Source of the DNA: Kiritimatiellia bacterium
Lineage (GTDB): Bacteria > Verrucomicrobiota > Kiritimatiellia > RFP12 > UBA1067
DNA length: 41,454 nt
Direction of reading: 5' to 3'
NCBI GenBank assembly: GCA_017648225.1
Contig: JAGCJE010000271.1
Coordinates: 1-41,454, forward strand
How positions within the stretch are numbered: position 1 is the first letter of the stretch; the number at the start of each line of letters is the position of its first letter. Below the pieces are notes generated by a model. The model did not search any database, had not been told where the DNA came from, and saw only the letters and a program-made list of their open reading frames with translations. Positions 9,690-41,454 of this stretch are shown in pieces. The position numbers and the translations under genes are program-made.

Positions 9690-12431
9690 ATGGCATCGAG
9701 AGACTTGAGAGGTTTGACAATCGAAATCGGCGGCGATACGTCAAATTTGACCGATGCGCTCCGCAACGTTGACGGAGAGTTGTCGAACCTTCAAAGCAAT
9801 CTCCGAACCGTAAACAGCGCACTGAGACTCGATCCGGGCAATGTGGACGCGCTCGCTCAGAGGCAGGCCCTTTTGACGGACGCAGTCGCAGAGACCACCC
9901 AACGCCTCGAACTGCTCCGAGAAGCGCAGCGACAAGCCGATCAGCAGATCGCCGACGGTGTCGAGGTGGATCAGAGAGCATATCGCAATCTGCAATCCGA
10001 GATCGTTCGAGCCGAGGCGAGTCTCGCCGACTATGAACGTCAGGCGAACGACGCGGGCGACGAGTCGAACGATGCAGCACAAGAGTCCGCCGAGGGTTGG
10101 ACGATTGTCAAGGATGTCATCGCCGATCTCGCCTCTCAAGCAATTCAGGCGGCGATTGATGGGTTCAAAGACCTTCTTTTCGAAGGTGAAAAAGCACTCG
10201 ATACATTTCAGGCGAAAACGGGACTGTCGAGCGACGCGATGGAATATTTCGGCGACGCGGCTCGCGACGTTTTCAAAGGTGGATGGGGCGAATCACTGAG
10301 CGACGTGTCCGGTGTCATGGCTGAGATTTACAACACGCTCGGCGACATGGATGCTGACTACATGAAAGCATTTGCCGAAAATGCGATGACGTTGACTGAT
10401 GTGTTCGGATGGGACACTCAGGAACAGCTCCGAGCCGTCAATTCGCTGATGAATCAATTCGGACTCACATCCGATGAGGCGTTTAATCTGATGGTGCAGG
10501 GTGCTCAGTTGGGCCTCGATCAGAACGGCGATCTCCTCGATACGATCAACGAATATTCAGTTCAATTCAAAAACGCAGGATATTCCGCGAATGACATGTT
10601 CAACATGCTCGCGAACGGTGCGGAAACCGGCACGTGGTCGGTTGATAAACTCGGCGACGCGGTCAAAGAGTATAACATCCGCATGTCGGACGGCACAGTC
10701 ATCGACTACATCAACGAAAACGCTAAAGCTCTCGGATTGACGGCAGCGCAAGCCGAAAGCCTCGGAAAGAAGATGCTCGAGAGCGGCGGTGCGAGCAAAG
10801 AGGCGATGGGGGCGATCCTGAACGGTATCCTCTCGATCGAAGACCCGACCGAGCGTTATAAAGCGGGTGTCGGTGCATTCGGTACGATGTGGGAAGATCT
10901 CGGCGAGGAAGCTGTAAAAGCTCTGTTCGACACCAAGGGCGGCATCGATTCCACGAATGCAGCGATGAGTCAGGTTAAAACCGACGCATACGACAATCTC
11001 GCGGCGTCGATCACATCACTTGGACGCACGTTGAAAGACGAGCTCCTTCAACCGATAGTCGACGCGTTCACACCCGCCCTCAAGGCGTCCGCCGATGCGA
11101 TGCGTGAGTTCGCAGCGGGATCGATTTCGATGGATGAGTTGTTTGCCCGAATAGGCGCGGCTGCGTCCGAGATGATTGCGATAATTAAAAACAATCTTCC
11201 ACGACTCGCAGAGATGGGCGGACAACTACTCTCGAATCTCGTTCAGGGTATCGTGAACGGTATTCCGAAATTGATCTCGGCGGCGGGCGAGATGATCCGA
11301 TCTCTCTCCAACGGCATCAAGTCGAATATGGGCGAATTCATCAGCAAGGGCCTCGATCTCATCAATGGTCTAGCTGATTCTCTCGCTCGGAGTCTGCCGA
11401 CTCTGATCGCGAGCGGCGTTCAGATGCTCCGAAATCTCGTTCAGGGCTTGATGAGTGCGCTCCCCGAGCTGATTTCTCGTGTGCCTGAGATCATCTCGAA
11501 ATTCGCGAATCTGATCAACGACAACGCGCCGACAATCATCGCGGCGGGTTTCGGTATCATCAAAGATTTGATCGTCGGTATCATCAATGCGATCCCCACG
11601 TTGATTCAGAATATCCCGAAAATCATTACCGCGATCGTGGACGTGTGGGAAGCTTTCAACTGGGCGAACCTCGGTAAAAAGGCGATCACCCTGCTGAAAG
11701 ACGGTTGTCTCGCAGTTGTCAATCTCGTCAAGAATGCCGGTAAAACCATTCTCGACGGAATCGTGAACGTCATCAAAAATCTCCCGCAGAATTTGGCGAC
11801 GCTCGGTCGAAATGCGATCTCCGATCTCGGCGGTGCAATCCGTGGAATGTTGAGCAACGTGAAATCCGCAGCGACCGAGATTTTCAATGGAATCGTGAAC
11901 ACGATCAAAAATCTCCCGTCGCAGATGCTCAACATCGGTAAAGACATCGTTCGCGGTTTGTGGAACGGCATTTCCGACATGACCGGATGGGTGATCGGAA
12001 AAATTCAGGGGTTCGGCGACAGCGTGTTGAGCGGAATCAAGAAATTTTTCGGTATTCAGTCTCCGTCGAAACTCATGCGTGACGAGATCGGCCGTTATCT
12101 CGCCGAGGGTATCGGTGAAGGTATTGAGGAAAACGCTGACTCCGCGCTCGATCCGATGCAAGCTCTCAGAGATGATCTCGCGGCGATTGACAGTCTGAAT
12201 GTGAGCCGGACCATCGGCATCAACGCTGACTCGTCTCAGGGTGAAACTCGTCGTCTTGCGGCACAGATGAACGAGCTCACAGCTCTCGTGAAAGCATATC
12301 TCCCGGAGATCGCGAACAAGGCGTCTAAAAACATCTACGTTGACAAAAAGCGTCTCGTCGGCGAGCTGATCTCCGACATTGACGAGGGTCTCGGCGAAAT
12401 TGCAAACAGAAGGGCGGTCGGTGCAGTATGA
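9690..12431 (+). CDS. Tape measure protein
   Basis: 913 aa, after G/GT. N-terminal coiled coil and repetitive Gly/hydrophobic segments. Confidence 0.9.
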   Translation: MASRDLRGLTIEIGGDTSNLTDALRNVDGELSNLQSNLRTVNSALRLDPGNVDALAQRQALLTDAVAETTQRLELLREAQRQADQQIADGVEVDQRAYRNLQSEIVRAEASLADYERQANDAGDESNDAAQESAEGWTIVKDVIADLASQAIQAAIDGFKDLLFEGEKALDTFQAKTGLSSDAMEYFGDAARDVFKGGWGESLSDVSGVMAEIYNTLGDMDADYMKAFAENAMTLTDVFGWDTQEQLRAVNSLMNQFGLTSDEAFNLMVQGAQLGLDQNGDLLDTINEYSVQFKNAGYSANDMFNMLANGAETGTWSVDKLGDAVKEYNIRMSDGTVIDYINENAKALGLTAAQAESLGKKMLESGGASKEAMGAILNGILSIEDPTERYKAGVGAFGTMWEDLGEEAVKALFDTKGGIDSTNAAMSQVKTDAYDNLAASITSLGRTLKDELLQPIVDAFTPALKASADAMREFAAGSISMDELFARIGAAASEMIAIIKNNLPRLAEMGGQLLSNLVQGIVNGIPKLISAAGEMIRSLSNGIKSNMGEFISKGLDLINGLADSLARSLPTLIASGVQMLRNLVQGLMSALPELISRVPEIISKFANLINDNAPTIIAAGFGIIKDLIVGIINAIPTLIQNIPKIITAIVDVWEAFNWANLGKKAITLLKDGCLAVVNLVKNAGKTILDGIVNVIKNLPQNLATLGRNAISDLGGAIRGMLSNVKSAATEIFNGIVNTIKNLPSQMLNIGKDIVRGLWNGISDMTGWVIGKIQGFGDSVLSGIKKFFGIQSPSKLMRDEIGRYLAEGIGEGIEENADSALDPMQALRDDLAAIDSLNVSRTIGINADSSQGETRRLAAQMNELTALVKAYLPEIANKASKNIYVDKKRLVGELISDIDEGLGEIANRRAVGAV

Positions 12432-21280: not shown

Positions 21281-21313
21281 ACGCCCGGGCGAAATGCTCG
21301 GGCGTCTTTTTTT
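21281..21313 (+). terminator. Rho-independent terminator ending the late operon
   Basis: ACGCCCGGGC-GAAAT-GCTCGGGCGT followed by CTTTTTTT. Confidence 0.85.
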
Positions 21314-21580
21314 ATTCGCATTTTATTCGCGTGTGCGAATAACATGATCCGCGAAAATAGTCCAACATCATCACAACATTACTAACATCATTTTTCTGAA
21401 AAACGGCCCGATCTGAGCCGAAAATCGCTAATTATTACGAAATCGTAATAATTGAAACATTTGCGAATATCTCAAAAACGGGTCAAAAATAACATGAAAC
21501 GGGCTTTTTATAACATCAAATAACATGATCATTTTCGGATGATGTTATGCTCAAAACCGTTGCGACACAATGGTTTTCAG

Positions 21581-21717
21581 TATTATATAACATCATAATA
21601 TTATTTTTCTTTAATTATAAGAAGAATATATAATAATATAGATATATAATATATAAGAGTATAAGAGATAAAAGAAAGTATATAAGAAAACGCGGAAAAA
21701 TGGTGTTATGATGTTAT
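21581..21717. repeat. AT-rich ~137-bp block, copy 1 (partner at 41231-41367)
   Basis: Shared strings in the same order: TATTATATAACATCATAATATTATTT, AATTATAAGAA, ATAGATATATAA, TATAAGAGA, AAGAAAGTATATAAGA, GAAAAATG. Confidence 0.85.
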
Positions 21718-21736
21718 CGGGCCGATTTTCGGTGTA

Positions 21737-21765
21737 GTGACAACGCCTCCGAAACGTGGTATAAT
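21737..21765 (+). promoter_or_regulatory. Sigma-A-type promoter for the moron gene
   Basis: GTGACA, 17-nt spacer, TATAAT with TGn extension (TGGTATAAT). SD GAAGGAGG and ATG 21799 lie downstream. Confidence 0.6.
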
Positions 21766-21798: not shown

Positions 21799-22524
21799 AT
21801 GGAACGTGGACAACGTATATCCCCGCAGCAAACCCGTCCCGGACAACCTCAGAGACGACCCCAGAGCTCCACTCAGCGACCCGCTCAGAGACCGCCTCAG
21901 AGTCGCCCTCAAGGATCACAACAGCGTCGACCGGCTCAGTCCGCTCGCCCCACGCAGCCGACTCGACCCGTATCCCGCAAGCGCAGAAAGAACAAGTCAA
22001 AAAAGCCGTGGATCATCGGCGCGGCGGTTCTCCTACTCCTGATCATCATTTTCGGCTCTGGCGGTGAGAATGACAACGTCGCAACTCAGACCCCCACCTC
22101 TGCGCCAGTTAATAATGACACTGCCGTCACGACAGCGACCGACGCGCCTATTCAGACCCCATCTCTGTACCCTCAGACGATTTTCAATCAAAACGGTGTG
22201 ACAATCACTCTGATCGGATTCGATAAAGCTCCGCTCATGGGGCCTGAAATCAAGTTCACCGTCGAGAACAACAGCGGTGAGAGTCTGATCGTTCAGACCG
22301 GATCACTCCACTGCAACGGATGGCAAATCGTAGACGCGACGAGTTTCATCGAGGTTGCCAACGGTGCGAAAGCCGGAGAAACGATTTACGTCTGGAGTAC
22401 GTATCTCGACGAATGTCAACTCAAGGCGAGCGACCTTGTGAATGTTGAGTTCAAGGGCGCGTCGATCACGACGAGCGATTACATGAAAACCTATGAGTTC
22501 GACATGACTGCGACTCTCCAATAA
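21799..22524 (+). CDS. Type II membrane protein: P/Q/R-rich cytoplasmic N-terminus, one TM, beta-rich ectodomain (moron; possible superinfection exclusion or surface protein)
   Basis: QRP-type low complexity (aa 1-70), TM WIIGAAVLLLLIIIFG, about 150-aa ectodomain. Has its own promoter and terminator. Confidence 0.7.
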   Translation: MERGQRISPQQTRPGQPQRRPQSSTQRPAQRPPQSRPQGSQQRRPAQSARPTQPTRPVSRKRRKNKSKKPWIIGAAVLLLLIIIFGSGGENDNVATQTPTSAPVNNDTAVTTATDAPIQTPSLYPQTIFNQNGVTITLIGFDKAPLMGPEIKFTVENNSGESLIVQTGSLHCNGWQIVDATSFIEVANGAKAGETIYVWSTYLDECQLKASDLVNVEFKGASITTSDYMKTYEFDMTATLQ

Positions 22525-24685: not shown

Positions 24686-24737
24686 TTGTTGTACTAACGA
24701 TACCGCTCCGAACGGTGCGGGTTGAATAGTACAACAA
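24686..24737. other. Candidate attP core for the serine integrase
   Basis: 52-bp imperfect palindrome. Perfect 11-bp arms TTGTTGTACTA / TAGTACAACAA with partly symmetric inner sequence. Lies 5 bp from the int stop. Confidence 0.4.
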
Positions 24738-24742
24738 CCCGC

Positions 24743-26155
24743 TTAAAAAAATCTCGGATCGATTTTCCCGTCCGGATAGATGTATATCTCAGAGACCACA
24801 GAACGCCACAAGGCGCGTTTTTCCTCACGGGTAAGGGTTTTATAAACCTCATCGAGATCGAGTCTCAGAAAGGCTCTCAGGGGCTCAAGGTCACGTTCTG
24901 TAACCTCAGGCGCGTTGTCCTCGATACGTAACGTGTTCATTTCCTCGACGATGGCCTTATATTTCTGATCGTACTCCTCCTGAGAAATGCGATCCTCCTC
25001 ATATTGATAATTGACACGTTGGAGCTTCTTCTCCAGCTTTTTTATTTTGTCGGCGTTCGACGGCTTTTTGACCGGCTCTTTTTGTGCGATCTCATACTCG
25101 GCGATGAATCGCTCGATCTCCGGTTTGATCGTTGTGAGCAAGTGCTCTTCGATTGCGAGTTCCGGGGCCGAATACGCGTTCGTGCATTGCTTGTGTAGTC
25201 GGTACTTATTGCAACGATAATAATAATATTCTCGATACGATCCCGCCCAGTGACCCACCATACGAGTTCCACATTCGGGACAGATGCAGAGCTGTGTGAA
25301 GATGTATTCTCGTGTTGTTTTGCGAGCTCGGACATTTTTCTTTTGTATTTCCTGCCACGTGGCCCAGCGTTCTTTTGTGACGATGGGGTCGCAATAATTG
25401 TCGTTGCCTTTATAATGACCGTACATGAGCGTGTTGTTCATGGCGTTCGTATATGTGTTGTAATTGTGTTTCGCGCCGGTCATCTCGTTCGCGTGGATCA
25501 TTGCGGCCCGTTTCGAGTGATTCATCTCATAATGATTGATATACGCCCAGAATGCCGGGAGTTGCTGCGGATCGGGAATAACGATTTTATCGCCGCGATC
25601 ATTGATCCCGATCGTGTGGGTGAACGGGAGACATTGCGCTCCGGTGATCGGTGAGCCTTTTTGAATGCGGACTTGAGCCGTTGCGATGATACGTTCGGAA
25701 ATGTTCGCGATCTCCTGCTGACCGATGCCCAGATAAAAGAGGATCAGCGTTTGACCCATCGGCGTATTCAGATCGAGCTCCGACTGCATTATCGCTCGCC
25801 ATTGAACACCGGCAGCGTCGAACGTCTCCATCATTTTGTAATACTCTGCCGGATTTCGAGTGAAGCGGTCGAACCTTGTGAAGATCACAAGATCGATTTT
25901 CCCGGCCTCGATGTCGGCGAGCATTTCGTGGATCGCCTTGCGTTTCCGGATCTGTTTTGCCGCCGTTTTACCCTCATCGGCATAGAGACCGACGACTCGC
26001 ATCCCATTCTCTTTCGCATACTCTTCGAGCGCGATTTTCTGCGCTGGGAGCGAATTTTCTTTCGAAACCTGCTCCGATGTTGATACTCGTATATAGAACG
26101 CAACGCGGATTACGCGCTGCATTTCTTTATGTTGTTCGATGAGATTCATCGACAA
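24743..26155 (-). CDS. int: Large serine recombinase (integrase)
   Basis: Resolvase catalytic motif YIRVSTSEQ. Recombinase domain. Zn ribbon CPECGTRM...YYYYRCNKY. C-terminal coiled coil. Confidence 0.9.
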   Translation of the reverse strand: MSMNLIEQHKEMQRVIRVAFYIRVSTSEQVSKENSLPAQKIALEEYAKENGMRVVGLYADEGKTAAKQIRKRKAIHEMLADIEAGKIDLVIFTRFDRFTRNPAEYYKMMETFDAAGVQWRAIMQSELDLNTPMGQTLILFYLGIGQQEIANISERIIATAQVRIQKGSPITGAQCLPFTHTIGINDRGDKIVIPDPQQLPAFWAYINHYEMNHSKRAAMIHANEMTGAKHNYNTYTNAMNNTLMYGHYKGNDNYCDPIVTKERWATWQEIQKKNVRARKTTREYIFTQLCICPECGTRMVGHWAGSYREYYYYRCNKYRLHKQCTNAYSAPELAIEEHLLTTIKPEIERFIAEYEIAQKEPVKKPSNADKIKKLEKKLQRVNYQYEEDRISQEEYDQKYKAIVEEMNTLRIEDNAPEVTERDLEPLRAFLRLDLDEVYKTLTREEKRALWRSVVSEIYIYPDGKIDPRFF

Positions 26156-26163
26156 TCCCCCTC

Positions 26164-26487
26164 TTATAATTCGTCATTGCTGACAAGGTCAGCGTATTTT
26201 TGAATTTTCTGTATCTGCTCTTTTGTGAAATTTCCGTGTATAATGTTTGTAGACGCATCCGATCGATATGAGTTCCCTAGTAATTCATCCATGCTGACAT
26301 TGTACAGAGCTGCAACTCTGGTCAGCACATCGACCGGTATGCGTCTATCGTTGTTTTCATACGAACGATACGCAGGTTTGCTCACCCCGATTCGATCCGC
26401 GACATCCTGCTGAGTATATCCATATCTATCGCGCAGCGTTCTCAATCGAGCGACTAAGTCCTCCCAGAACATATTCTCGTTATTCAT
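26164..26487 (-). CDS. XRE-family HTH repressor (CI-like)
   Basis: YGYTQQDVADRIGVSKPAYRSYENNDRRIP HTH. Divergent from the Cro-like gene. ATG 26487 follows GGAGGG. Confidence 0.8.
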   Translation of the reverse strand: MNNENMFWEDLVARLRTLRDRYGYTQQDVADRIGVSKPAYRSYENNDRRIPVDVLTRVAALYNVSMDELLGNSYRSDASTNIIHGNFTKEQIQKIQKYADLVSNDEL

Positions 26488-26532
26488 TTTTATTCCCTCC
26501 ATTGAAATTAGTTAGTAAACCTATCTATTCAA

Positions 26533-28979: not shown

Positions 28980-31598
28980 TTGAACATCTACATATACGAT
29001 TTCGAAGTTCTCTCTCACGACTGGATCGTGGTGATCCGTCGAGTCGATAGTCCACATCACACGGTAATCCACAACGATAATTATCGTTTGAAAGAATGGA
29101 TTCTCGCCCATCAGGACGACGTGATCGGAGGTTATAACTCGAAGGGGTACGATGACTGGATTCTCCAGTCTATCCTCAACGGAGCCGATAACGCGACGGT
29201 GAAAGCTCACAACGATTTCATCATCGCAGAGCACCGAAACGGATGGGAGTTCCCGTTCATTCAGTATCAACGAAAGTTGTTCCGGTCATTCGATCTCAAG
29301 GACGATCTCCCGAAGGGCCTGAGCCTCAAGGCGATCGAGGGGAACATGTATCTCCCCATCGTCGAGAGTTCCGTCCCGTTCGATATCGATCGACCGCTGA
29401 CGCCCGAGGAGCTCGACGAGCTGATCTACTACTGTAAAAAGGACGTGGACGCGACTGTCGCTCTCTATGAACGCCGAAAGGAGTACATCAAGAGCAAACT
29501 CACCGTCGCAAAGCTGAAAGGTCTCGACCCGGCTGTCGCGCTCGCTCAGACGAACGCAAAGCTCGCGGCGATGTATCTCGACGCGAAGCCAGTCGAACGC
29601 GTAGACGGTCGCCGGTACGAGATCCCGGAGAATCTCGATCAGACGATGATTCCCCGCGAGGTGCTCGATTTCTTCAATCAGATTCGAGATGAAAGCATCC
29701 CGGACGAGGAACTGTTCGAAAAGAATCTCGTCGTCGAGATCGCCGGTTGCGAATGTGTTTTCGCATGGGGTGGCGTACACGGTGCGGTTCCGAACACGAT
29801 CGCCGAGAGTGATCCCGAGGGGACACCGGATCGTCGAATCATCGTGAACTATGACGTCGCCTCGCTTTACCCGAACTCGATGCTCAATTTCGGATATGTT
29901 TCCCGAAGCTGCGAGAACCCGAACGCGTTCCGCGATCTGGTTGAAACCCGTCTCAAGGCCAAGAAAGCCAAGGACAAGGACACCGCGAACGCTCTGAAAC
30001 TCGTCATCAATACGACATACGGCGCGATGTTAAATGCTTATAATCCACTCTACGACGAGCGAGCCGGTCGATCGGTCTGCATCTCGAATCAGCTCTCGAT
30101 GTGCGAGCTTGTGTGTAGACTTGAGCAAAATGTCCCGTCGTTCGAGATTCTGAATTTCAACACCGACGGCGTGATGTTCCGAGTTCTCGAGTCCGAGATG
30201 ACCACGGTCGAGCCGATCCTCGAGGAATGGCAGAAGCGAACGCGATTCGCACTCGAGCGCGACGATGTGATTCGACTCGTTCAGAAGGACGTGAACAACT
30301 ACATCGCCGAGGAGGGCGGAGGAAAGATCAAAGCATGCGGCGACTACGTCAAGCGATGGCAAGGCGACAATGTCACCGATGAGAACGACATCAAGGCCCG
30401 TCTCATCAACAACGACCTCACGATCGTTCAGATCGCTCTCGTCGAGAGATTGCTTCACGACGTACCGGTCGAAAAGACGATCACCGAGTGTCAGAACATC
30501 CACTATTTCCAGCAGATCGCGAAGTTTGGCAGCTCCTACGACTCAGCGTTTCACGAGGTGAACGGCGAGCGCGTACCGGTGCAAAAGGTCAATCGTGTAT
30601 ATGCTGCGAAGGATGAGCGGTTCGGAACCGTGAAGAAGGTTCGTCCGAACGGCAAGGTTGAAAAGATCGCCTCTCTCCCGGATCATTGCATCATTGACAA
30701 TGAGAACCGGTTGACGGTGGATCAGATCGACAAACAGTTTTACATCGATCTCGCGAACGAGCGAGTCGAACAATATCTCGTCGGCAAGAAGTCGACAAAG
30801 AAGAAAAAGAAGGAGGACAAACAAATGGCAGTAGCAAAGCCCACGACCCCGATGAACGTCTATCAGAAGCTCATCGCCGCCCGAAAGATGTTTCAGGAGG
30901 CCGACGTGAAGAAATCCGGTATCAACCGATTTGCCGATTTCAAATATTTTGAACTCGCCGACATCGTCCCGGCAAAGACTCACATTTTCGCCGAGCTCGG
31001 TCTCGTCGACTGCGTGACGTTCACGCCCACCGACGCGACGCTCTATCTGTTTAACGTGGACAATCCCGATGAGGTGATCCCGTTCCAGTCTCCCATGAGA
31101 CCGCTGACCGTAGTCTCTCAGACCGGTAAAAACAAGATGAACGAGCTGCAGGGCCTCGGAGCCGAGGAGACATATCAGCGTCGTTACCTCTACATGATGG
31201 CTCTGGACATCGTTGAGGCTGACAGTTTCGACGCAACGAGTGGACAGAGCGAGACCTCGAAGTCACAGAATGTAACCAAGAGCTCGCAGGAGACCGCAGA
31301 ACCGACGAGCGTCGTGAGTGCGAACAAATCCTCGTCCACGAGACCGGCGTCTCAGAACGAGCGTGAGGCCGTCAAAAAGGCATTGACGAACACTGACGGC
31401 AATGCTGACACCGCTCAGGTGAACGCAATCATCCGCGCATTGAAGAAGCTGCGCGAAAAGGACGCCGACAGATATGAGGCGTATATCGGCGAGTGTCAGG
31501 CGAAGATCCCGACCAAGAAGAACCCGGAGAGAGTGATCTCGAAGAAGGACGCGGACGACATGTTGATCGCCATCGGCGAGAAGATTGAGGAGGAATAA
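28980..31598 (+). CDS. Family-B DNA polymerase (aa 1-615) continuous in frame with an ERF-type single-strand annealing protein (aa 616-872)
   Basis: Exo motifs YDFEV, GYNSKGYDDW, YYCKKDVDAT. Pol motifs DVASLYPNSM, KLVINTTYGAM, NFNTDGV. TTG start after AAAGGAGG. Confidence 0.8.
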   Translation: MNIYIYDFEVLSHDWIVVIRRVDSPHHTVIHNDNYRLKEWILAHQDDVIGGYNSKGYDDWILQSILNGADNATVKAHNDFIIAEHRNGWEFPFIQYQRKLFRSFDLKDDLPKGLSLKAIEGNMYLPIVESSVPFDIDRPLTPEELDELIYYCKKDVDATVALYERRKEYIKSKLTVAKLKGLDPAVALAQTNAKLAAMYLDAKPVERVDGRRYEIPENLDQTMIPREVLDFFNQIRDESIPDEELFEKNLVVEIAGCECVFAWGGVHGAVPNTIAESDPEGTPDRRIIVNYDVASLYPNSMLNFGYVSRSCENPNAFRDLVETRLKAKKAKDKDTANALKLVINTTYGAMLNAYNPLYDERAGRSVCISNQLSMCELVCRLEQNVPSFEILNFNTDGVMFRVLESEMTTVEPILEEWQKRTRFALERDDVIRLVQKDVNNYIAEEGGGKIKACGDYVKRWQGDNVTDENDIKARLINNDLTIVQIALVERLLHDVPVEKTITECQNIHYFQQIAKFGSSYDSAFHEVNGERVPVQKVNRVYAAKDERFGTVKKVRPNGKVEKIASLPDHCIIDNENRLTVDQIDKQFYIDLANERVEQYLVGKKSTKKKKKEDKQMAVAKPTTPMNVYQKLIAARKMFQEADVKKSGINRFADFKYFELADIVPAKTHIFAELGLVDCVTFTPTDATLYLFNVDNPDEVIPFQSPMRPLTVVSQTGKNKMNELQGLGAEETYQRRYLYMMALDIVEADSFDATSGQSETSKSQNVTKSSQETAEPTSVVSANKSSSTRPASQNEREAVKKALTNTDGNADTAQVNAIIRALKKLREKDADRYEAYIGECQAKIPTKKNPERVISKKDADDMLIAIGEKIEEE
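30825..31598 (+). CDS. ERF-family annealase, possible independent translation from an internal start
   Basis: GAAGGAGG, 7 nt, then ATG 30825. NVYQKLIAARKMF...FADFKYFELADIV...GAEETYQRRYLYMMALDI is ERF-like. Confidence 0.6.
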   Translation: MAVAKPTTPMNVYQKLIAARKMFQEADVKKSGINRFADFKYFELADIVPAKTHIFAELGLVDCVTFTPTDATLYLFNVDNPDEVIPFQSPMRPLTVVSQTGKNKMNELQGLGAEETYQRRYLYMMALDIVEADSFDATSGQSETSKSQNVTKSSQETAEPTSVVSANKSSSTRPASQNEREAVKKALTNTDGNADTAQVNAIIRALKKLREKDADRYEAYIGECQAKIPTKKNPERVISKKDADDMLIAIGEKIEEE

Positions 31599-32851: not shown

Positions 32852-33022
32852 ATGATGTGTCCTGTGTGTCAGTGTGAACACACCAAGGTCATCGACAGTC
32901 GACCGAATGACGAGGAGGTCGTCCGCCGTCGCGAGTGCCCGAAATGTGGCGCGAGATGGATCACTCAGGAAAGACTCCTCCGAGTAATTGAACCGAAAAA
33001 GAAAAGGAGCAATGAATCATGA
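32852..33022 (+). CDS. NrdR-like zinc-ribbon protein lacking the ATP-cone (56 aa)
   Basis: Hand-translated as [56 protein letters not shown]. Compare the NrdR N-terminus M.CP.C....TKVIDSR...RRRR.C..C..RFTT.E. Confidence 0.65.
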
Positions 33023-34103: not shown

Positions 34104-34390
34104 TTCACGAGCGCGATCTCCAGTCGAAGTGTCTGAAATGGCTGCGGGATCGCGACATCTACACCATCAACACACACGGTGACGGCTGGGGCGGCAAAGG
34201 GACGCCGGATCTGACGATGTGCGTCAACGGTCGTTTCGTCTGCGCAGAACTGAAAGTCGGCGCGGGTGAAATGAGTTCCGCTCAAAAACTGCATCGCGTG
34301 TGGATCGAGCGCAACGGGGGGATCTTCTTCTCCCCGTACACGCTCGGGGAATTTATCGAAAAAATGGAGGGGATCATCAAAAATGAATAG
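34100..34390 (+). CDS. VRR-NUC domain nuclease
   Basis: GTPDLTMCVNGRFVCAELKVGAGEMSSAQKLH is a PD-(D/E)XK pattern typical of VRR-NUC. Confidence 0.75.
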   Translation: MIHERDLQSKCLKWLRDRDIYTINTHGDGWGGKGTPDLTMCVNGRFVCAELKVGAGEMSSAQKLHRVWIERNGGIFFSPYTLGEFIEKMEGIIKNE

Positions 34391-36317
34391 AGAATATGTG
34401 ATCCTCAATGAGAACAAAGAGCCGACTCACAAATTCAAAAATGGCGGAAAACCGTGGGAATCCGTCAAAAATGAGCCGAATCTCGCGCTGATCGTGCCCG
34501 AAGGATTCGTCGTTCTGGATTTTGACACCGAGTCTGATGCAAAAATCATCAAGGACATCGTCGACGGGATGGACCTCCCCGTTCGCGTGATGCAGACGAC
34601 GAGAGGCGTTCATGTCTGGTTTAAGGCCCCGGAGGGCGAGGAGATCAAGAACGGCATCAAGCAGCGACTCGCGATCGGTATCTATTCCGACCGCAAAGCC
34701 GGAGGCCGAAACGCATATGTCAAGATTCGCGACGGCGGTAAGAATCGCCCGTGGATCAAGTCGACGAGCTTTGATGACCTGATGGTTCTCCCCCGCTGGC
34801 TCCGCCCGATTCAGGGCATCCGCGACGGTGGGTTCGATTTCAAGGCTCTCGGCGAGGGCGGCGGACGGAATCAAAAGCTCTTTAACTACATCGTGTATTT
34901 GCAGAGCAAAGGATTCACCCGCGAGGAGATCAGAACCACGATTCGAGTGATTAACGACTATGTGTTCGAGAGTCCTCTCGACGACGAGGAGATGGACAAG
35001 ATTCTCCGTGATGAGTCGTTCAAGCCCGAGGAGCAGATCGCAGCAGAACAAGCCGAACGCAAGTCGAGCCGAGAGTTCAGACACAATGATTTCGGCGAGG
35101 AACTGATCGCGATGTATCACATCATTACATACAACGGTCAGCTCTACATCTACGAAGACGGCTTTTATCAGGCCGATGAGCGAATCATTGAGAACAAGAT
35201 GATCGAGATGTTCCCTGGCATCAAGCAACGCCAACGCGCCGAGGTGCTCGCGTACATACGCATTCGCACTCATGTCCCGGCGGGTGATCTGAGGTTCGAC
35301 CCGTGGACGGTCAATCTCAAGTCGGGCCGACTTAATCTCCGGACGCTGACTCTCAGTGAGCACACGCCGGACGCGATTGAGTTCGACCGCATCCCGGTCG
35401 ATTATGATCCGGATGCATATTGTGCAGCTCTCGACGGAATGCTCGACAAGGTGTTCTGTTATGACGAGGAGGTTCGCAAGCTGTTCGAGGAGATGGTCGG
35501 ATATACGCTGATGCGTCACGCGAATTATCAAAAGGCGTTCATGTTCTACGGCTCCGGCTCGAACGGAAAATCCACGATCCTCGATCTGATCAAGGCGTTT
35601 CTCGGTAAGCACAATTATGTATCGATCGACATTCGTGAACTGACGAAAAAGCAGTTCAGCGCGGCGGAACTCGAGAACAAGCTCGCGAACGTCGGCGACG
35701 ACATCAACGACGGCGCGATCGAGGGAACCGGCGTTCTCAAGAAGCTGTTCGCAGGAAACTCGATGCAAGTCGAGCGCAAGGGCGAAAGGCCCTTCCAGCT
35801 CGAGCCCTATGCGACCCACATTTATTCATGCAACGACATCCCGAGATCGGCGTCCGACAAGACGTTCGGATTCTATCGCCGATGGGCGTTCATCCCGTTG
35901 AAAGCGAAATTCTCGACCGCTGACGCCGATTATGATCCGCTGATCAAAGAGAAGATCGTCACGCCCGAGGCTCTGTCGTATCTGCTGAATCTGGCTCTCG
36001 AGGGTGCTCAGAGACTCATTCAGAGCAACGGATTCACCGAGCCGAAAGTCGTCGCGGAAACGCTCGAGTCGTACAAGATCGACAACTCCTCGACGCTGTC
36101 GTGGGTGGATGAGTGCAAGATCGCTCTGAGCGTGATTCTCGAAAAGCCGACGACTGAACTATATAGCATGTTTGCGGATTGGTGCAAACTGTCCGGCGTG
36201 AAGTCGACGCCGTCTCGAAAAACATTCTGTCGCGAGCTGCGCGATCGTTTCGATCTTGACGATGGCTTGCGTCAGGGTAAGGGCGGAAAGTGGTATTTTC
36301 GCGTAAATCTCGATTGA
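34383..36317 (+). CDS. Bifunctional primase-polymerase / D5-P4-type helicase
   Basis: AEP motifs VVLDFD and GVHVWF. Walker A GSGSNGKST. 644 aa. Confidence 0.85.
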   Translation: MNREYVILNENKEPTHKFKNGGKPWESVKNEPNLALIVPEGFVVLDFDTESDAKIIKDIVDGMDLPVRVMQTTRGVHVWFKAPEGEEIKNGIKQRLAIGIYSDRKAGGRNAYVKIRDGGKNRPWIKSTSFDDLMVLPRWLRPIQGIRDGGFDFKALGEGGGRNQKLFNYIVYLQSKGFTREEIRTTIRVINDYVFESPLDDEEMDKILRDESFKPEEQIAAEQAERKSSREFRHNDFGEELIAMYHIITYNGQLYIYEDGFYQADERIIENKMIEMFPGIKQRQRAEVLAYIRIRTHVPAGDLRFDPWTVNLKSGRLNLRTLTLSEHTPDAIEFDRIPVDYDPDAYCAALDGMLDKVFCYDEEVRKLFEEMVGYTLMRHANYQKAFMFYGSGSNGKSTILDLIKAFLGKHNYVSIDIRELTKKQFSAAELENKLANVGDDINDGAIEGTGVLKKLFAGNSMQVERKGERPFQLEPYATHIYSCNDIPRSASDKTFGFYRRWAFIPLKAKFSTADADYDPLIKEKIVTPEALSYLLNLALEGAQRLIQSNGFTEPKVVAETLESYKIDNSSTLSWVDECKIALSVILEKPTTELYSMFADWCKLSGVKSTPSRKTFCRELRDRFDLDDGLRQGKGGKWYFRVNLD

Positions 36318-36318
36318 G

Positions 36319-36534
36319 GTGATGATCGTGCCGAGGGAACGGTTGATCGACTCACCCGAAATGATCGCGCGTTGTTTGTCGTGTCCTCTCAAGGAGTGCA
36401 TTTGTAACACTCGCGGAAAATGTCCGATACTCGACCGGGAGGTGATAAATCATGACGGGAATCAAACTCGCGGTTCTGATCTGGATCGTCGCGGTATTGT
36501 TTTCGATCGTCGTGCATATACGGGACGACGATGA
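36319..36534 (+). CDS. Small Cys-rich protein (uncertain; 3' part overlaps the next micro-ORF)
   Basis: CLSCPLKECICNTRGKCP. The C-terminal third looks like off-frame sequence. Confidence 0.35.
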   Translation: MMIVPRERLIDSPEMIARCLSCPLKECICNTRGKCPILDREVINHDGNQTRGSDLDRRGIVFDRRAYTGRR

Positions 36535-36556
36535 TTTCGATGATGATCTTTTATAA
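36452..36556 (+). CDS. 34-aa single-TM peptide with an acidic tail
   Basis: Hand-translated as MTGIKLAVLIWIVAVLFSIVVHIRDDDDFDDDLL. SD GGGAGGTG. Confidence 0.45.
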   Translation: MTGIKLAVLIWIVAVLFSIVVHIRDDDDFDDDLL

Positions 36557-36576
36557 ATGAGTTGGAGGTATATTTC

Positions 36577-37242
36577 ATGAAAATCATTGAACCTTCGTTC
36601 AGATGGCTCGACGGGAAGATCCCCGACGGCCGAGCGATCCTCGCGAACATTGCGACCGCCGGTCGCGTTTGCTATCAGTCCGAACCGACCTCGGACGACG
36701 CGACGTTCGTTCGGAATCTCATCAAGCGCGAACACGAGTCTGTTATCGAACACGGATTGATCAGCGTTTTGCTCACGTGCGACCGTGGTGTCACGCATGA
36801 GGCCGTGAGACATAGAATCGCGAGCTATTCTCAGGAATCCACCCGCTACTGTAATTATAGCAAGGGGAAATTCGGAGCCGAGATCACTTATATCGACATC
36901 TCCCGAGGGATCGAGCTGTGTCCGGTGACTTCGAAGCTCGCGCCCGAGACGATCTCGGAGATCGTCGGCGTATGGTGGGCCGCTTGTCTGTATGCTGAGA
37001 ATGCATATATGCACATGATCGAGCTCGGAGCATCACCCCAGATCGCTCGATCCGTACTCAACAACTCCACGAAAACGGCGATCGTGGTCTCGATGAATCC
37101 TCGCGAGTGGCGACATTTTTTCAAGCTGCGCAACGATCCGGCGGCACATCCTCAGATGAGAGAAGTCGCGGGAATGATGCTCGCCGAGTTCAAAAACGCC
37201 GTACCGGTGATCTTCGACGATCTGGAGGTGCAGGATGATTGA
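36577..37242 (+). CDS. thyX: Flavin-dependent thymidylate synthase ThyX
   Basis: ThyX signature RHRIASYSQESTRY. ATG 36577 follows GGAGG. Confidence 0.85.
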   Translation: MKIIEPSFRWLDGKIPDGRAILANIATAGRVCYQSEPTSDDATFVRNLIKREHESVIEHGLISVLLTCDRGVTHEAVRHRIASYSQESTRYCNYSKGKFGAEITYIDISRGIELCPVTSKLAPETISEIVGVWWAACLYAENAYMHMIELGASPQIARSVLNNSTKTAIVVSMNPREWRHFFKLRNDPAAHPQMREVAGMMLAEFKNAVPVIFDDLEVQDD

Positions 37243-37816
37243 CAACGCAAAGAAAGACGCAGAAGCGTTGCGCGAGATATTGGTTGATGATTGCGTTGAC
37301 TTTCCGCATGTTGTTCACACTATGCTCCATAAAGCCGCCGACCTGATCGAATCCCTCGCCGCAGAGCTGGAGCAGGTCAAGCGGGAGCGGGATGGTCTGC
37401 AGGCGGAACTCGATGAGCTGAAAGAAGAGTATTATGTGGACATACACACCGCTCGTGACCCTATGGCGGACAAGATCAAGCAGCTTGAGGCGCGCGAGTG
37501 GGATTTGTTCGACCTTCTTTCATCCGCATGGTTTGGTAAGCGGTGCTATTTTCGACAGGATGACGGCAATGTTTACAGCCGCTTGACCGGAGAATATATG
37601 TTGTTTGATCAGGCGATTGATGAACTTGCGCACGAGCTGACCTATGACCGCGAATGCGAGCGGGCCGAACCCGTGCGGCATGGGCGGTGGGAACTCGAAA
37701 CATCAAAGTACCTTCGCCGCTGTTCTGCATGCGAAAAGGTGACCTTCTATCGCGGCGCTGGGCGTCATTACGACTACTGCCCCAACTGCGGCGCGAGGAT
37801 GGATTTGGAGGTGTAA
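37235..37816 (+). CDS. Hypothetical protein: coiled coil plus C-terminal zinc ribbon
   Basis: CSACEKV...YCPNCGARM. Codon style differs from neighbouring genes. Confidence 0.65.
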   Translation: MIDNAKKDAEALREILVDDCVDFPHVVHTMLHKAADLIESLAAELEQVKRERDGLQAELDELKEEYYVDIHTARDPMADKIKQLEAREWDLFDLLSSAWFGKRCYFRQDDGNVYSRLTGEYMLFDQAIDELAHELTYDRECERAEPVRHGRWELETSKYLRRCSACEKVTFYRGAGRHYDYCPNCGARMDLEV

Positions 37817-37818
37817 TC

Positions 37819-38250
37819 GTGAGTATATTCGACTACGTGCCCGAGAATCGAGCGGGTCGACGAGCTGAGAGTCGCAGACTCCAGCAGGAGGCCGAGGCGG
37901 AGGCGAAATATCTCGCAAGGCGTGATGCTGCAAAACGTGCGGCGATGGAAAAGATCGCACGTAACGGAATCACCATCGACGATCTCAAGCGCGAATATGA
38001 GCGCGGACGGAACGAGTCGATCACCGAGGTTTCTGAGTATGCGATGAAAATGATTTATTGCGGATTCGCTCTCGCGCTTAAGCGAGAGTTCAAGTTCGGA
38101 GCCGAGCGCGTTCTTCGAACGCTCCGCGCCGCTGATCAGATCATTCTCGAGGAGCTCACGACCGAGGACATCATCGATCGTGTGAGCCGAGAGCTCGGAA
38201 TCACTGTTCGGTTCGACTGTAAGAAGGGAGAGGAACTGTTTGACGTTTGA
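37819..38250 (+). CDS. Hypothetical protein
   Basis: Track ORF trimmed to GTG 37819, after GGAGGTG. Confidence 0.6.
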   Translation: MSIFDYVPENRAGRRAESRRLQQEAEAEAKYLARRDAAKRAAMEKIARNGITIDDLKREYERGRNESITEVSEYAMKMIYCGFALALKREFKFGAERVLRTLRAADQIILEELTTEDIIDRVSRELGITVRFDCKKGEELFDV

Positions 38251-38575
38251 TGAATATCAAGCACTCGCTCAGAGGACGAGCTCGAAATGGCACAGTCGCA
38301 TTTTGAACGGTGCGCTCGGTCTCTCGGGTGAGGTCGGTGAGTGTGCTGACCACGTGAAGAAGCATTTTTTTCAAGGTCACAATCTCGATTGTGCTCATCT
38401 CGCCGAGGAGATCGGCGATGTGCTGTGGTATTGTGCGGAACTGGCCTCGGGAATCAATCGATCTCTCGATGAGATCGCTGAGATGAACATCGCAAAGCTC
38501 CGCAAACGATACCCGGACGGGTTCGATTCTGAGAGAAGTGTCCACCGCGCCGAATATGAGGTGATTGAGAAATGA
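38240..38575 (+). CDS. MazG-like nucleotide pyrophosphohydrolase
   Basis: LSGEVGECADHVKK...LAEEIGDVLWYCAELA...MNIAKLRKRYP. TTG start. Confidence 0.8.
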   Translation: MTFDEYQALAQRTSSKWHSRILNGALGLSGEVGECADHVKKHFFQGHNLDCAHLAEEIGDVLWYCAELASGINRSLDEIAEMNIAKLRKRYPDGFDSERSVHRAEYEVIEK

Positions 38576-38886
38576 GTTGTCTCGGATGCAAGCATTATCT
38601 CGGCGGCGGGTGCTGCCGAATGAATCTTGAGAGCGAATGCGCTGCCGGTGGTTTCGAGATGTACGAAACCGATATGTATCAATATTATTGCAAGGCTAGA
38701 CCGCCGATGCCCGGGACGATTCCGACCGACAGAGCGTTGATCGTCGAAGTCGAGGCGTACGACGAGCGTCGATATGTTCCGGAGGTCGACTGTATGGCGT
38801 GGGGTTGGGTCGTGTACGATCGTCCGTTGACGTCGGATGAAATCTTCGATTATGAGCTGAGATCAGCTCCGAGGGAGGTGGAATGA
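38572..38886 (+). CDS. Hypothetical protein (Cys-rich N-terminus)
   Basis: ORF track. ATGA-type coupling to neighbouring genes. Confidence 0.6.
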   Translation: MSCLGCKHYLGGGCCRMNLESECAAGGFEMYETDMYQYYCKARPPMPGTIPTDRALIVEVEAYDERRYVPEVDCMAWGWVVYDRPLTSDEIFDYELRSAPREVE

Positions 38887-39188
38887 TGAGAAAGTTCAAT
38901 GAAAGGATCATCGGAGATTTAGCTCCAGAACCTCAAACCGTTCCCCCGATGCCTCCGATCAAGCAGGTGCGATCCGCCGTCGATCATCCGAGTCACTACA
39001 ATGTCGGAAAGATCGAAGTCATCGACGCGATTGAGGCGTGGGGCCTGAATTTTAGCCTCGGGAACGCTGTCAAGTATATTGCTCGAGCCGACCACAAGGG
39101 CAAGCCGATCGAGGATTTGCAGAAAGCCCGGTGGTATATCGAGCGCGAGATCGAAAGGAGAATGAACGATGAAATTGATCGTCGATAA
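38883..39188 (+). CDS. DUF3310-family protein
   Basis: HPSHYNVGKIEVIDAIEAW...GNAVKYIARADHKGKPIEDLQKARWYI pattern. Confidence 0.7.
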   Translation: MMRKFNERIIGDLAPEPQTVPPMPPIKQVRSAVDHPSHYNVGKIEVIDAIEAWGLNFSLGNAVKYIARADHKGKPIEDLQKARWYIEREIERRMNDEIDRR

Positions 39189-39489
39189 GATGCCGGAAAC
39201 GGCGAAAGAATGTCTGTTCGCGGCGATGGGAACCGGAAAGCCTCGCTGTCGCCATGATTCGAAGCTGTGTCCGCTGTTGCGCGGTGAGGAGTGTCCTCAC
39301 ATGATGGAGATTCCCTCCCCCAAGTCTGTTACGCTCACTCAGGCATGTGAAATAATGGGTCTCACCAAATCGACCCTCGAGTCTAAGAAGCTAGATGGTT
39401 ATAACGCCCAGATGAGCGTCATTGACGAACTGGCCCCCGAGCCTAAGAAGCGCACGACCAAGCGATCCACGGCTAAGAAAGCCGACTGA
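39169..39489 (+). CDS. Hypothetical protein
   Basis: ORF track. Confidence 0.55.
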   Translation: MKLIVDKMPETAKECLFAAMGTGKPRCRHDSKLCPLLRGEECPHMMEIPSPKSVTLTQACEIMGLTKSTLESKKLDGYNAQMSVIDELAPEPKKRTTKRSTAKKAD

Positions 39490-39509
39490 CATCTGAGGAG
39501 GTGTCCCAC

Positions 39510-39830
39510 ATGAAGAAGGGAAAAAAGAATCGACGTTGGAATCTCTCCGTCGCCGAGACTCTCACTCTCCATCAACTGTATTGTGATCTCCATCGACCTA
39601 AGATTTTCAAAATGGAAATGGAGGGCAAGATTTTCGAGGTTGTCGCTCACGTCGATTTGCGCGACCCTGTCCCGGTGAAGTATGTGAAGGAACAACTCGC
39701 TCGAAAGCTCGCCGAGGCGATGATCGCTAATGATGTGGTGAAAATCGACGTTGTGGATGATTCTGCTCTATGGGGTGAGAAGTTGTTGCGCGGGACATTG
39801 CGAGTCGTCGTTCCGAAAGGGGTGTTCTAA
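39510..39830 (+). CDS. Hypothetical protein
   Basis: ATG 39510 follows GAGGAGG (39496-39502). Confidence 0.6.
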   Translation: MKKGKKNRRWNLSVAETLTLHQLYCDLHRPKIFKMEMEGKIFEVVAHVDLRDPVPVKYVKEQLARKLAEAMIANDVVKIDVVDDSALWGEKLLRGTLRVVVPKGVF

Positions 39831-40162
39831 TGGAATATGTTTTCCGTTTTCTGTCCGGGTTCGCTGTGACGCTCATGGGCTGTCTGATCGCGCTCCTGAG
39901 CATGCGTCGAACCATTCGGGAGAACGCGCACGAGCTGGAGGAGACCGAAAAGAATCTCACGAAGCTCCCGTCGTATATCTGGGTTGATGTGAACGATCGT
40001 CTCCCGATAAGCGACGGCGAGTATCTCGTCGAGTATTGTTTCGAGAATTATCCCGACGTGAGAATGCATGCTATTTACGATTTCGATGTTCGTCTGGATC
40101 GTTTTCAGCATGAGGGTTTTCACGGGATGAAGGTTGTCCGCTGGGCCGAGCTGCCGAGATGA
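39830..40162 (+). CDS. Membrane-anchored protein with a DUF551-like C-terminal domain
   Basis: TM FLSGFAVTLMGCLIALL. IWVDVNDRLPISDGEYLV is DUF551-like. Confidence 0.55.
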   Translation: MEYVFRFLSGFAVTLMGCLIALLSMRRTIRENAHELEETEKNLTKLPSYIWVDVNDRLPISDGEYLVEYCFENYPDVRMHAIYDFDVRLDRFQHEGFHGMKVVRWAELPR

Positions 40163-40172
40163 GGTGATTTTG

Positions 40173-40550
40173 ATGTACGATTGCGAAGTTGAATTGAGAC
40201 CGTTGACATTGGCGTTCATCGGTTACGATGAGGGACAAACTCGTCGATATTTCGCCGAATTTGCGAAAGTGAATTCCGATCAGGTTTCACATTTCCTCGA
40301 TCGCGACGGTCGTATTTTGTTTAAGGATGGCACAGTCGTTCGTCGCGTACATTACGATCGTAATCGTCTGATGGGTTGTCAGTTCGATCAGGTGATCATC
40401 GCGGTTGACTGGCGCGGAGTTTACAATTGGCCCGAGGAGCGGTTTGTCCTGATGCGTGAAGTGTACGAGCGAACGTCGAGGAGTTGCGTCCCGGGTCAGT
40501 TCCTCACCATTATCTATGATCTGGATTCGGAGGTGGTCCACGATGAGTGA
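40173..40550 (+). CDS. Hypothetical protein
   Basis: ATG 40173 follows GAGGTG (40161-40166). Confidence 0.6.
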   Translation: MYDCEVELRPLTLAFIGYDEGQTRRYFAEFAKVNSDQVSHFLDRDGRILFKDGTVVRRVHYDRNRLMGCQFDQVIIAVDWRGVYNWPEERFVLMREVYERTSRSCVPGQFLTIIYDLDSEVVHDE

Positions 40551-40971
40551 TCTGATCGATCGTTCCAAGCTGCCGACAATTCGCATCACGATTCCCGCGC
40601 ATCTCTGCGATGCGAGCTGTCGCGGCATCGTCGAGATCGTGGCGAACGGTTTTCAAACCTTGATTGACTCGGCTCCGGCGGTCGACGCCGTTCCTCGCGA
40701 CGAATACGATGCTCTGTTGAAACGGTTCCGGCATCTGCTCGAGAGCGATTTCATCCGGAGTTTCGACGAGTATGATCCTCGGACTCAGACGTACAAGCGC
40801 GACATCATAGAGGCGGACGACGCTGTTCGGATGGTTCGTTGCAAGGACTGTGAACACTGGCAGCAGAGTCGACGTACACCGCTCGGATCGTGTTATTGTG
40901 AGTGCCTCGGGGTATATCGCCCCATTCATTTCTACTGTGCATACGGTAGGAAAATAGTCAAAAACGACTAA
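40543..40971 (+). CDS. Hypothetical protein with a C-terminal Cys cluster
   Basis: ATG 40543 overlaps the upstream stop. CKDCEHW...CYCEC. Confidence 0.6.
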   Translation: MSDLIDRSKLPTIRITIPAHLCDASCRGIVEIVANGFQTLIDSAPAVDAVPRDEYDALLKRFRHLLESDFIRSFDEYDPRTQTYKRDIIEADDAVRMVRCKDCEHWQQSRRTPLGSCYCECLGVYRPIHFYCAYGRKIVKND

Positions 40972-41230
40972 CACGATCCAACATAACCGACTAACATGAT
41001 CTAACATCATTAACATCATTTCGCCGGTGATCGGCTGTTCGGGCCCGAAAATCCGTCGACGAGAAAAATTGAAAATTTCAATCAGACCGTCGAAACGGTC
41101 GATCTCGGCGAAAATGATGTTATCATTTAAGGATCATGTTGAAAATGATGTTAATGCAGATTGCACAAAAAGAGGTGTTGAAAACGCCGATTTGATGGGG
41201 TTCTTTTGTTCAAGGTCTCTATATTTTATA

Positions 41231-41367
41231 TATTATATAACATCATAATATTATTTCTTTCAAATTATAAGAAAAATAATAGATATATAAATATATAAGA
41301 TATAAGAGAGATAAGAGAAAAGAAAGTATATAAGATTTTCGAGAAAAATGATGTTTTCATGTTATTG
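41231..41367. repeat. AT-rich ~137-bp block, copy 2 (partner at 21581-21717)
   Basis: Same ordered shared strings as copy 1. Ends about 20 bp before the SD of the first late gene. Confidence 0.85.
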
Positions 41368-41388
41368 CGTGATTTCAGGAGGTGCGAT

Positions 41389-41454
41389 GATGAAAAATGT
41401 CCCGTGTCGATATTGTGAGACTCGTGTCCTCGGGTGTCACGATCGATGTGAAAA
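41389..41454. repeat. 66-nt exact copy of window positions 1-66 (circular-assembly overlap or terminal redundancy)
   Basis: Character-by-character identity of GATGAAAAATGTCCCG...GATCGATGTGAAAA at both ends. Confidence 0.95.

Follow-up and report, generated by a model that had tools for sequence, protein, structure and literature searches.

The DNA analysed here (referred to as the window, 41,454 nucleotides in length) is the entire contig C303 of a 1.88-Mb MAG (53% GC) from a gut metagenome, and its two ends repeat each other (positions 1-66 are the same as 41389-41454), so that it closes into a circle of 41,388 bp. It represents the genome of a temperate, siphophage-like phage which carries nearly all of its genes on the plus strand, and for this reason GC skew is uninformative in the window. 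The gene content, as obtained from Pfam scans of the window, is given in Table 1 together with the non-coding features discussed below, and includes a serine integrase, a CI-like repressor, a fused PolB-ERF protein, a primase-helicase and a sigma-like protein. A near-contiguous inverted repeat of 25 nt, located immediately 3' of the serine integrase gene (24686-24737), is a candidate attP core. Between the primase-helicase gene and the non-coding gap that precedes the Cys-rich gene lie approximately 4.6 kb of accessory genes (36319-40971), which encode ThyX, MazG, DarA_C, DUF3310 and unknown proteins.

It had been suggested, in a sequence-only reading of this DNA, that the latter gap contains an iteron-like array of the 9-mer TAACATSAT in both orientations, with three palindromes in between. 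All copies listed in that reading are indeed present, the sole slip being the last one, which starts at 41356 and not at 41357, and the palindromes were likewise confirmed at the coordinates where they had been placed. The motif is moreover enriched against shuffled sequence, as the window contains 13 exact copies compared to 0.50 expected and none of 100 dinucleotide shuffles reached this number. All but one of these 13 copies fall within two AT-rich gaps, i.e. 40969-41388 and 21313-21736, the second of which is absent from the sequence-only reading and holds six exact and several one-mismatch copies. A motif-blind test of the 429-bp region returned AACATCAT as the top 8-mer with six occurrences (the maximum in 1000 local dinucleotide-preserving shuffles being four), and the gap 21313-21736 by itself gives the same top 8-mer. 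In the remaining 1.83 Mb of the MAG, 14 scattered copies of TAACATSAT and no clusters were found. The array had also been described as lying upstream of the late operon; because the window is circular, it is instead located directly upstream of the genes for the 61-aa Cys-rich protein and the sigma-70 region-4 (sigma-r4)-like protein, and not of the terminase/structural operon.

Table 1. Genes and non-coding features of the window, in order of position on the closed circle starting from the Cys-rich gene.
Feature	Coordinates	Strand	Remarks
Cys-rich protein	start at 41390		61 aa; ATG at 41390 corresponds to window position 2
Sigma-70 region-4 (sigma-r4-like, ArpU-like) protein	184-606	plus	Pfam
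Gap after the sigma-like gene	607-751	plus	145 bp, before HNH and terminase genes; not part of the origin
Late-operon terminator	21281-21312	plus	immediately upstream of module B
Module B, left part	21340-21547	plus	direct iterons at 21340, 21363 and 21383, then spacer with palindrome AATTATTACGAAATCGTAATAATT; after the spacer, direct iterons at 21490, 21511 and 21521 and inverted iteron at 21539
Module B, AT core	21574-21722	plus	direct iteron at 21588; TATATAAGA at 21679-21687; inverted iterons at 21700 and 21708
Sigma-70-type promoter	21737-21765	plus	GTGACA-17-TATAAT with upstream TG; drives the 241-aa gene 21799-22524
Serine integrase	24743-26155	minus	Pfam
CI-like HTH repressor	26164-26502	minus	Pfam
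PolB-ERF fusion	28980-31598		Pfam
SNF2 helicase, YqaJ exonuclease, ThyX, MazG and DUF3310 proteins			Pfam
Mini-NrdR zinc ribbon	32852-33022		Pfam
PrimPol / D5_N / SF3-helicase / Pox_D5 protein	34383-36317	plus	Pfam
Module A, left array (direct iterons)	40969-41019	plus	first iteron at 40969 (one mismatch) is TAACACGAT and overlaps the TAA stop of ORF 40456-40971; degenerate copy near 40980; exact copies at 40992, 41002 and 41011, spaced 9-10 bp
Module A, spacer between converging iterons	41020-41113		small palindromes at 41038-41049, 41068-41082 (AATTGAAAATTTCAAT, AT-rich) and 41085-41100
Module A, inverted iterons opposing the left array	41114-41153	minus	exact copies at 41114 and 41145; one mismatch at 41133
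Module A, AT core	41224-41347	plus	about 100 bp at about 10% GC, lowest 80-bp GC 0.09; opening direct iteron (exact) at 41238-41246; TATATAAGA at 41327-41335
Module A, right arm	41348-41364	minus	two inverted one-mismatch iterons, at 41348 and 41356
RBS AGGAGG	41377-41382		for the Cys-rich gene; 12 nt past the end of the module A right arm

The two gaps share a common plan, in which converging sets of iterons surround a spacer and are followed by an AT core that is itself flanked by converging iterons. In module A (40969-41375) the order is direct iterons, a spacer of about 95 bp, inverted iterons, a linker of about 70 bp and the AT core, while module B (21330-21722) is equally complete. An AT-rich block of about 150 bp is common to both gaps (41224-41375 and 21574-21722), and the core of module A, which is presumed to be an unwinding element, shows homology to 21574-21699 as well as to its counterparts in relatives. 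With respect to the primase-helicase gene, module A is situated 4,652 bp past the stop codon and module B 12.6 kb upstream. Module B, with a terminator before it and a promoter after it, resides in a terminator-promoter gap. The product of the gene that follows (21799-22524) is a proline-rich, moron-like protein of 241 aa without a Pfam match and with its own strong sigma-70 promoter; at that place the complete 41.7-kb relative G001 encodes a proline-rich protein that is shorter (115 aa) and includes a hydrophobic segment (L124:1670-2017, minus strand). DnaA boxes were found in neither module, and their total in the window is at chance level.

Relatives of the phage were retrieved with the primase-helicase from IMG/VR (84-88% identity) and by a scan of GTDB genomes, which yielded 20 prophage loci at 31-58% identity. 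All of the relatives found in IMG/VR possess the module at the equivalent place, with an iteron that mostly reads (C/T)AACACCAT, and in at least 12 of the 20 prophage loci the start of an iteron cluster plus AT core is located at -30 to +200 bp relative to the stop codon of the helicase gene. In two Peptostreptococcus prophages the module lies 3.6-4.0 kb downstream of the helicase gene, as it does in the window, and in contig G011:C103 an origin-like module is located directly downstream of this gene. Since the module directly follows the helicase in L129, L130 and G011:C103, the accessory genes of 36319-40971 look as if they had been inserted between rep and ori. The AT core shows homology throughout the family, and its terminal TATATAAGA precedes the right-arm iteron by 12-20 nt; this word or a close variant of it is present in every module, across a helicase identity of 34-100% and a genome GC content of 26-53%, and it could be a -10-like element or an entry site for the primase/helicase. 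The iteron itself, on the other hand, is lineage-specific (ATAACAAAA, TGTCACAAA, ATCTGTTACC, GCGTAACC, ATCTTTGACA and AACTTGTCC), and mapping of the iteron word on the helicase tree requires six changes, which is the minimum possible and which none of 200 label shuffles attained.

Searches with the non-coding DNA itself returned little. No match to either gap was obtained by BLASTN against 50,697 phage records, and an exact 20-mer from the AT block had no match in IMG/VR; a 16-mer from the same block gave 111 IMG/VR matches, mostly due to chance, among which the only real relatives were L006, L075, L083 and L114. A search for related loci with the sigma-like protein was also without a match. 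In Bacillus-type relatives a second repeat family, absent from the window, occupies the region from the helicase stop to the main iterons (TGACCATTTT / GGTCAAA / GGTCACGAAAA; L133, L134 and L135 at 11850-11990, L137 at 9960-10130 and L138 at 11860-12010). The MAG G011, labelled Parabacteroides, contains two contigs of this Firmicutes-type phage family, C38 (L130) and C103, both with TGTCACAAA iterons, which may represent two related phages or a binning artefact.

Two modules placed 16-23 kb apart occur in five contigs, i.e. the window, G001, G006:C93, G007:C29 and G011:C103. Orthologous modules of the window and G001 are 73% and 72% identical, compared to 68% and 59% for modules A and B within one genome; as orthologues are more alike than copies within a genome, the duplication predates the split between the window and G001, and both copies have co-evolved with one reader. 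The relative orientation of the twins is direct in the window and likewise in G011; in the Peptostreptococcus prophages it is inverted, and the second module there adjoins a tyrosine integrase gene. In G011:C103 one of the two modules has remained beside the helicase gene. Only one module is present in Bacillus-type relatives, and the single-module relatives G008-G010 indicate that one module suffices.

The presumed reader of the iterons, and initiator, is the 644-aa primase-helicase, which contains the Pfam domains Prim-Pol, PriCT_1, D5_N, DUF5906 and Pox_D5. Its sole PDB relative is PriRep5 of SaPI5 (7OLA/7OM0; E = 2.9e-26, query residues 254-615). In an AlphaFold model of the C-terminal domain (pLDDT 84) the final 60 or so residues are predicted to adopt a helix-helix-beta-hairpin arrangement (helices 71-85 and 93-104, strands 106-112 and 118-122), with a putative wing at ...RQGKGGKWYFRV. 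Comparison of this model with the PDB by Foldseek gave a non-significant best E value of 0.23, and the top weak matches were all winged-helix DNA-binding domains, among them those of Zur, RFX and ORC2. The mini-NrdR protein was also considered as a reader, given that the paired iterons resemble ACAC...GTGT boxes, and is not supported, as the covariation described below points to the helicase wing.

This covariation is most apparent in the pair L134 and L135, from the cultivable hosts Bacillus sp. FJAT-29814 and Neobacillus niacini MER531, respectively. Their helicases (9962-11836 in both) are 97.3% identical, with 17 differences in 624 residues, three of which fall in the C-terminal wing (GKNKRIF in L134 versus GKSTRLF in L135), and in their modules (11990-12260 in both; 81% identical) the iteron core has switched in eight of eight copies, from GTTACC in L134 to GTAACC in L135. 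On the basis of these sequences the pair appears to be a natural specificity switch, for which the evidence is strong but not proof: the two phages differ in other genes as well, and the covariation therefore points to the wing without proving it to be the reader. The module nearly always precedes a sigma-r4-like gene, and the sigma-like protein consequently had to be excluded as the reader. In this regard, the region-4 (C-terminal) helix of the sigma-like protein is identical between L134 and L135, and L137 agrees with L133 and L138 in its iteron and wing but has an unrelated downstream regulator (18-22% identity); together these comparisons argue strongly, without amounting to proof, that the sigma-like protein does not read the iterons. 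The same trend is seen closer to the window, whose helicase is 88% identical to that of G001 with a different wing (GGKWYF versus NGKRFF): position 6 of the iteron is T in 15 of the 17 window copies and C in 23 of the 28 G001 copies, in both modules of each phage. Iteron specificity thus follows the C-terminal domain of the helicase in a correlative manner.

Hints on transcription were derived from metatranscriptome contigs that belong to relatives (about 90% identity), in which contig ends are weak indicators and DNA carry-over is possible. A contig from run X8 (depth 57, about 92% identical) covers 729-1328 and 1675-2320 and skips 1329-1674, from which it follows that the relative in question is without ORF 1350-1634. 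It ends about 73 nt upstream of position 729, inside the 607-751 gap, which probably harbours the true late promoter. At the other end of the late operon, the depth of the RNA libraries is 34-50 on the last late gene and drops to 0-2.6 past the terminator, and module A is covered at a depth of only about 2 (low-depth contigs over 41131-41397), which could be due to DNA carry-over. These data fit a transcriptionally quiet module B and a module A that receives read-through at most. No plus-strand terminator was found in the stretch that leads from the early genes to the Cys-rich gene, so that read-through from the early operon can express the Cys-rich and sigma-like genes, and their transcription is most simply explained by such read-through across module A. 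The sequence-only reading had found no convincing -35/-10 pair before the first late gene, and a promoter scan of 40972-41388 detected no ordinary promoter. Module A contains no conserved sigma-70 promoter (a minus-strand match at 41291-41264 is not kept in module B), no -35/-10 pair is conserved in the module and no -35 element is conserved across the family; a weak promoter within the AT core is possible.

Taken together, the region 40969-41375 is best explained, with a probability of about 0.72, as a PriRep/SaPI-type replication origin, one of two such copies on the circular genome (41.4 kb) of this temperate phage, whose own primase-helicase would read it. The enrichment of the motif, the conserved architecture, the homology to PriRep5, the helicase-adjacent position of the module in relatives and the covariation with the wing all lead to this reading. 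We infer from these lines of evidence that the helicase binds the iterons in this phage, that the core melts, that the origin fires and that the second copy has a role. In mechanistic terms, the 9-bp iterons (consensus YAACAYSAT) would be bound by the winged-helix C-terminal domain of the PrimPol-SF3 helicase, and the converging iterons would position helicase rings on either side of the spacer and of the core of about 100 bp and 10% GC; the AT core would then melt, the helicase would load itself, the PrimPol domain would prime and the phage PolB would extend the primers. Several observations count against an origin. Neither module adjoins the helicase gene, in contrast to SaPIs and most relatives; the module is almost always co-oriented with, and placed before, a sigma-r4-like gene, which makes some transcriptional role possible; and TATATAAGA renders the AT core more conserved than is required for a plain unwinding element.

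The sequence-only reading had considered a promoter dependent on a phage activator and an origin to be equally likely. The origin part of that view has gained from the helicase homology, the helicase-adjacent modules and the iteron/wing covariation, whereas the promoter part has lost ground. It is improbable that the iterons are operators or activator sites of the sigma-r4/ArpU-like, Cys-rich or mini-NrdR protein which control a promoter of the late regulators or of the late operon. Such a function would be in line with the location and orientation of the module, directly ahead of regulator genes in the window and most relatives, with the lack of an ordinary promoter in 40972-41388, with the resemblance of the conserved TATATAAGA, 12-20 nt ahead of the right-arm iterons, to a -10 element and with the low-depth RNA-library contigs over 41131-41397. 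However, the iteron word switches between L134 and L135 under an identical region-4 helix, it is retained in L137 despite an unrelated downstream regulator, and module B as well as the second modules of the four other related contigs precede no such regulators; these findings argue against an activator-dependent late promoter. Furthermore, the gene downstream of the module is not sigma-like in L129 and L143, no Cys-rich gene intervenes between the module and the sigma-like gene in L130, L131 and G011, and no -35 element is conserved. The RNA data point in the same direction, as the depth-57 contig of a relative begins in the 607-751 gap rather than in module A, where the depth of about 2 could reflect DNA carry-over.

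An unlikely, though less improbable, alternative holds that the helicase does bind the iterons and that at least one of the modules is not a firing origin, being instead a fork barrier, a handcuffing/copy-control site or a cis enhancer similar to crr of P4. A precedent for a barrier is offered by the fork stalling proposed for SPP1 oriR (PMC6316719; PMC3485210); the spacing of the twins by about half a genome in five related contigs, the ERF annealase and YqaJ exonuclease encoded by the phage and the location of module B, unlike module A, in a transcriptionally quiet terminator-promoter gap are all compatible with it. Nevertheless, both copies have retained the architecture in full, with the AT core and TATATAAGA, which would be needless for a pure barrier, and one module suffices in the single-module relatives G008-G010. 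Very improbable is a mobile or recombination element, be it an insert of the MITE kind bounded by terminal inverted repeats, or sites at which the serine integrase or an invertase would act. The AT block of about 130 bp, with inverted arms of about 23 nt and present twice, would suit such an element, but it has no copies beyond these two in the 1.88-Mb MAG, for which reason a MITE was rejected, and the positions of the modules are orthologous in relatives, with a duplication older than the window/G001 split. The number of iterons per arm also varies (two versus three), as in protein-binding arrays, and the relative orientation of the twins differs by lineage, direct here and inverted in the Peptostreptococcus prophages. 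The variable number of iterons per arm among relatives also led to the rejection of an RNA stem between the inverted arms. A centromere-like partition site or a packaging site deserves equally little credence: plasmid centromeres are typically iteron arrays too, but genes of the ParA, ParB or ParM type were not found in the Pfam scans of the early genes, the phage is not plasmid-maintained in view of its serine integrase, the terminase genes have a separate upstream region and the covariation is with the helicase wing.

Within the origin reading, it may tentatively be proposed, as a rather doubtful extension, that twin PriRep-type origins about half a genome apart represent a conserved functional design in this phage clade. 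Under this equally tentative proposal, module A would be transcribed through before the late regulators and the other copy would be insulated between the late terminator and a promoter. By analogy with SPP1 oriR, the second module could possibly serve as a barrier to forks once the initiator is bound to it, and thereby bring about the change from theta to concatemeric replication. Another possibility is that TATATAAGA is a -10-like start gated by helicase at the right-arm iterons, which would couple origin firing to the expression of the late regulators; the two options are not mutually exclusive within a twin-origin design.

If the origin reading holds, the SaPI-type origin with a self-loading helicase is not confined to satellites but also serves complete temperate phages of Firmicutes from gut and soil, and it can be separated from rep and be present in two copies. 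A family-wide origin core marked by the conserved TATATAAGA is defined as well. The joint change of three wing residues and one iteron base in L134 and L135 could provide a handle on DNA reading by winged helices, and, as a warning for annotation, AT-rich iteron gaps of this sort should not be called late promoters.

The ori of SaPIs consists of iterons in opposite orientation around an AT-rich centre of about 100 bp, with a total length of about 300 bp, and is located directly after rep, the iterons being read by the wing of the C-terminal winged helix of Rep (PMC9371898; bioRxiv 10.64898/2026.10.17.759575); in SaPI5, AT-rich stretches of the AAAATTTT type lie between the inverted iterons (bioRxiv 10.64898/2026.10.17.759575). 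Both modules of the window resemble this SaPI/PriRep design in that opposed short iterons flank an AT-rich centre of about 100 bp within an overall length of about 300-400 bp. The likeness extends to the fused primase-SF3 helicase, a sequence homologue of PriRep5 (E = 2.9e-26), and to the position of the module right after the helicase stop codon in most relatives. In contrast to SaPIs, the iterons measure 9 bp (YAACAYSAT) instead of 5-7 bp, 4.65 kb of accessory genes intervene between the helicase gene and module A, and the module is duplicated. The host element is a complete temperate phage with its own PolB and not a satellite, the primase is of the PrimPol type and the AT core bears the conserved TATATAAGA.

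A comparable arrangement is known from SPP1, a siphophage with a genome of about 44 kb, in which oriL and oriR are similar modules of direct repeats plus AT-rich unwinding DNA, about 13 kb apart and served by one origin-binding protein, and in which one of the origins occupies a gap bracketed by transcription in the late, moron-containing gene region (PMC6316719). In the model proposed for SPP1, gp38 on oriR stalls forks, and an exonuclease and an annealase restart replication to give concatemers (PMC6316719; PMC3485210). The phage described here shares with SPP1 two similar modules of repeats and AT-rich DNA at distant sites, a likeness of layout only, for which no sequence relationship is expected. 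It differs in that SPP1 employs gp38, a loader and a DnaB-type helicase in place of a self-loading SF3 PriRep, and in that oriL of SPP1 is located inside gene 38. The alpha protein of P4, which combines a primase and an SF3 helicase with a DNA-binding domain at the C-terminus, recognises one short iteron both at ori and at the distant crr, the latter being enhancer-like and without origin architecture; unlike ori and crr of P4, both copies in the window are complete modules. In conclusion, the overall origin design is known from these systems, while its detachment from rep, its conserved duplication and the conserved core word are new.
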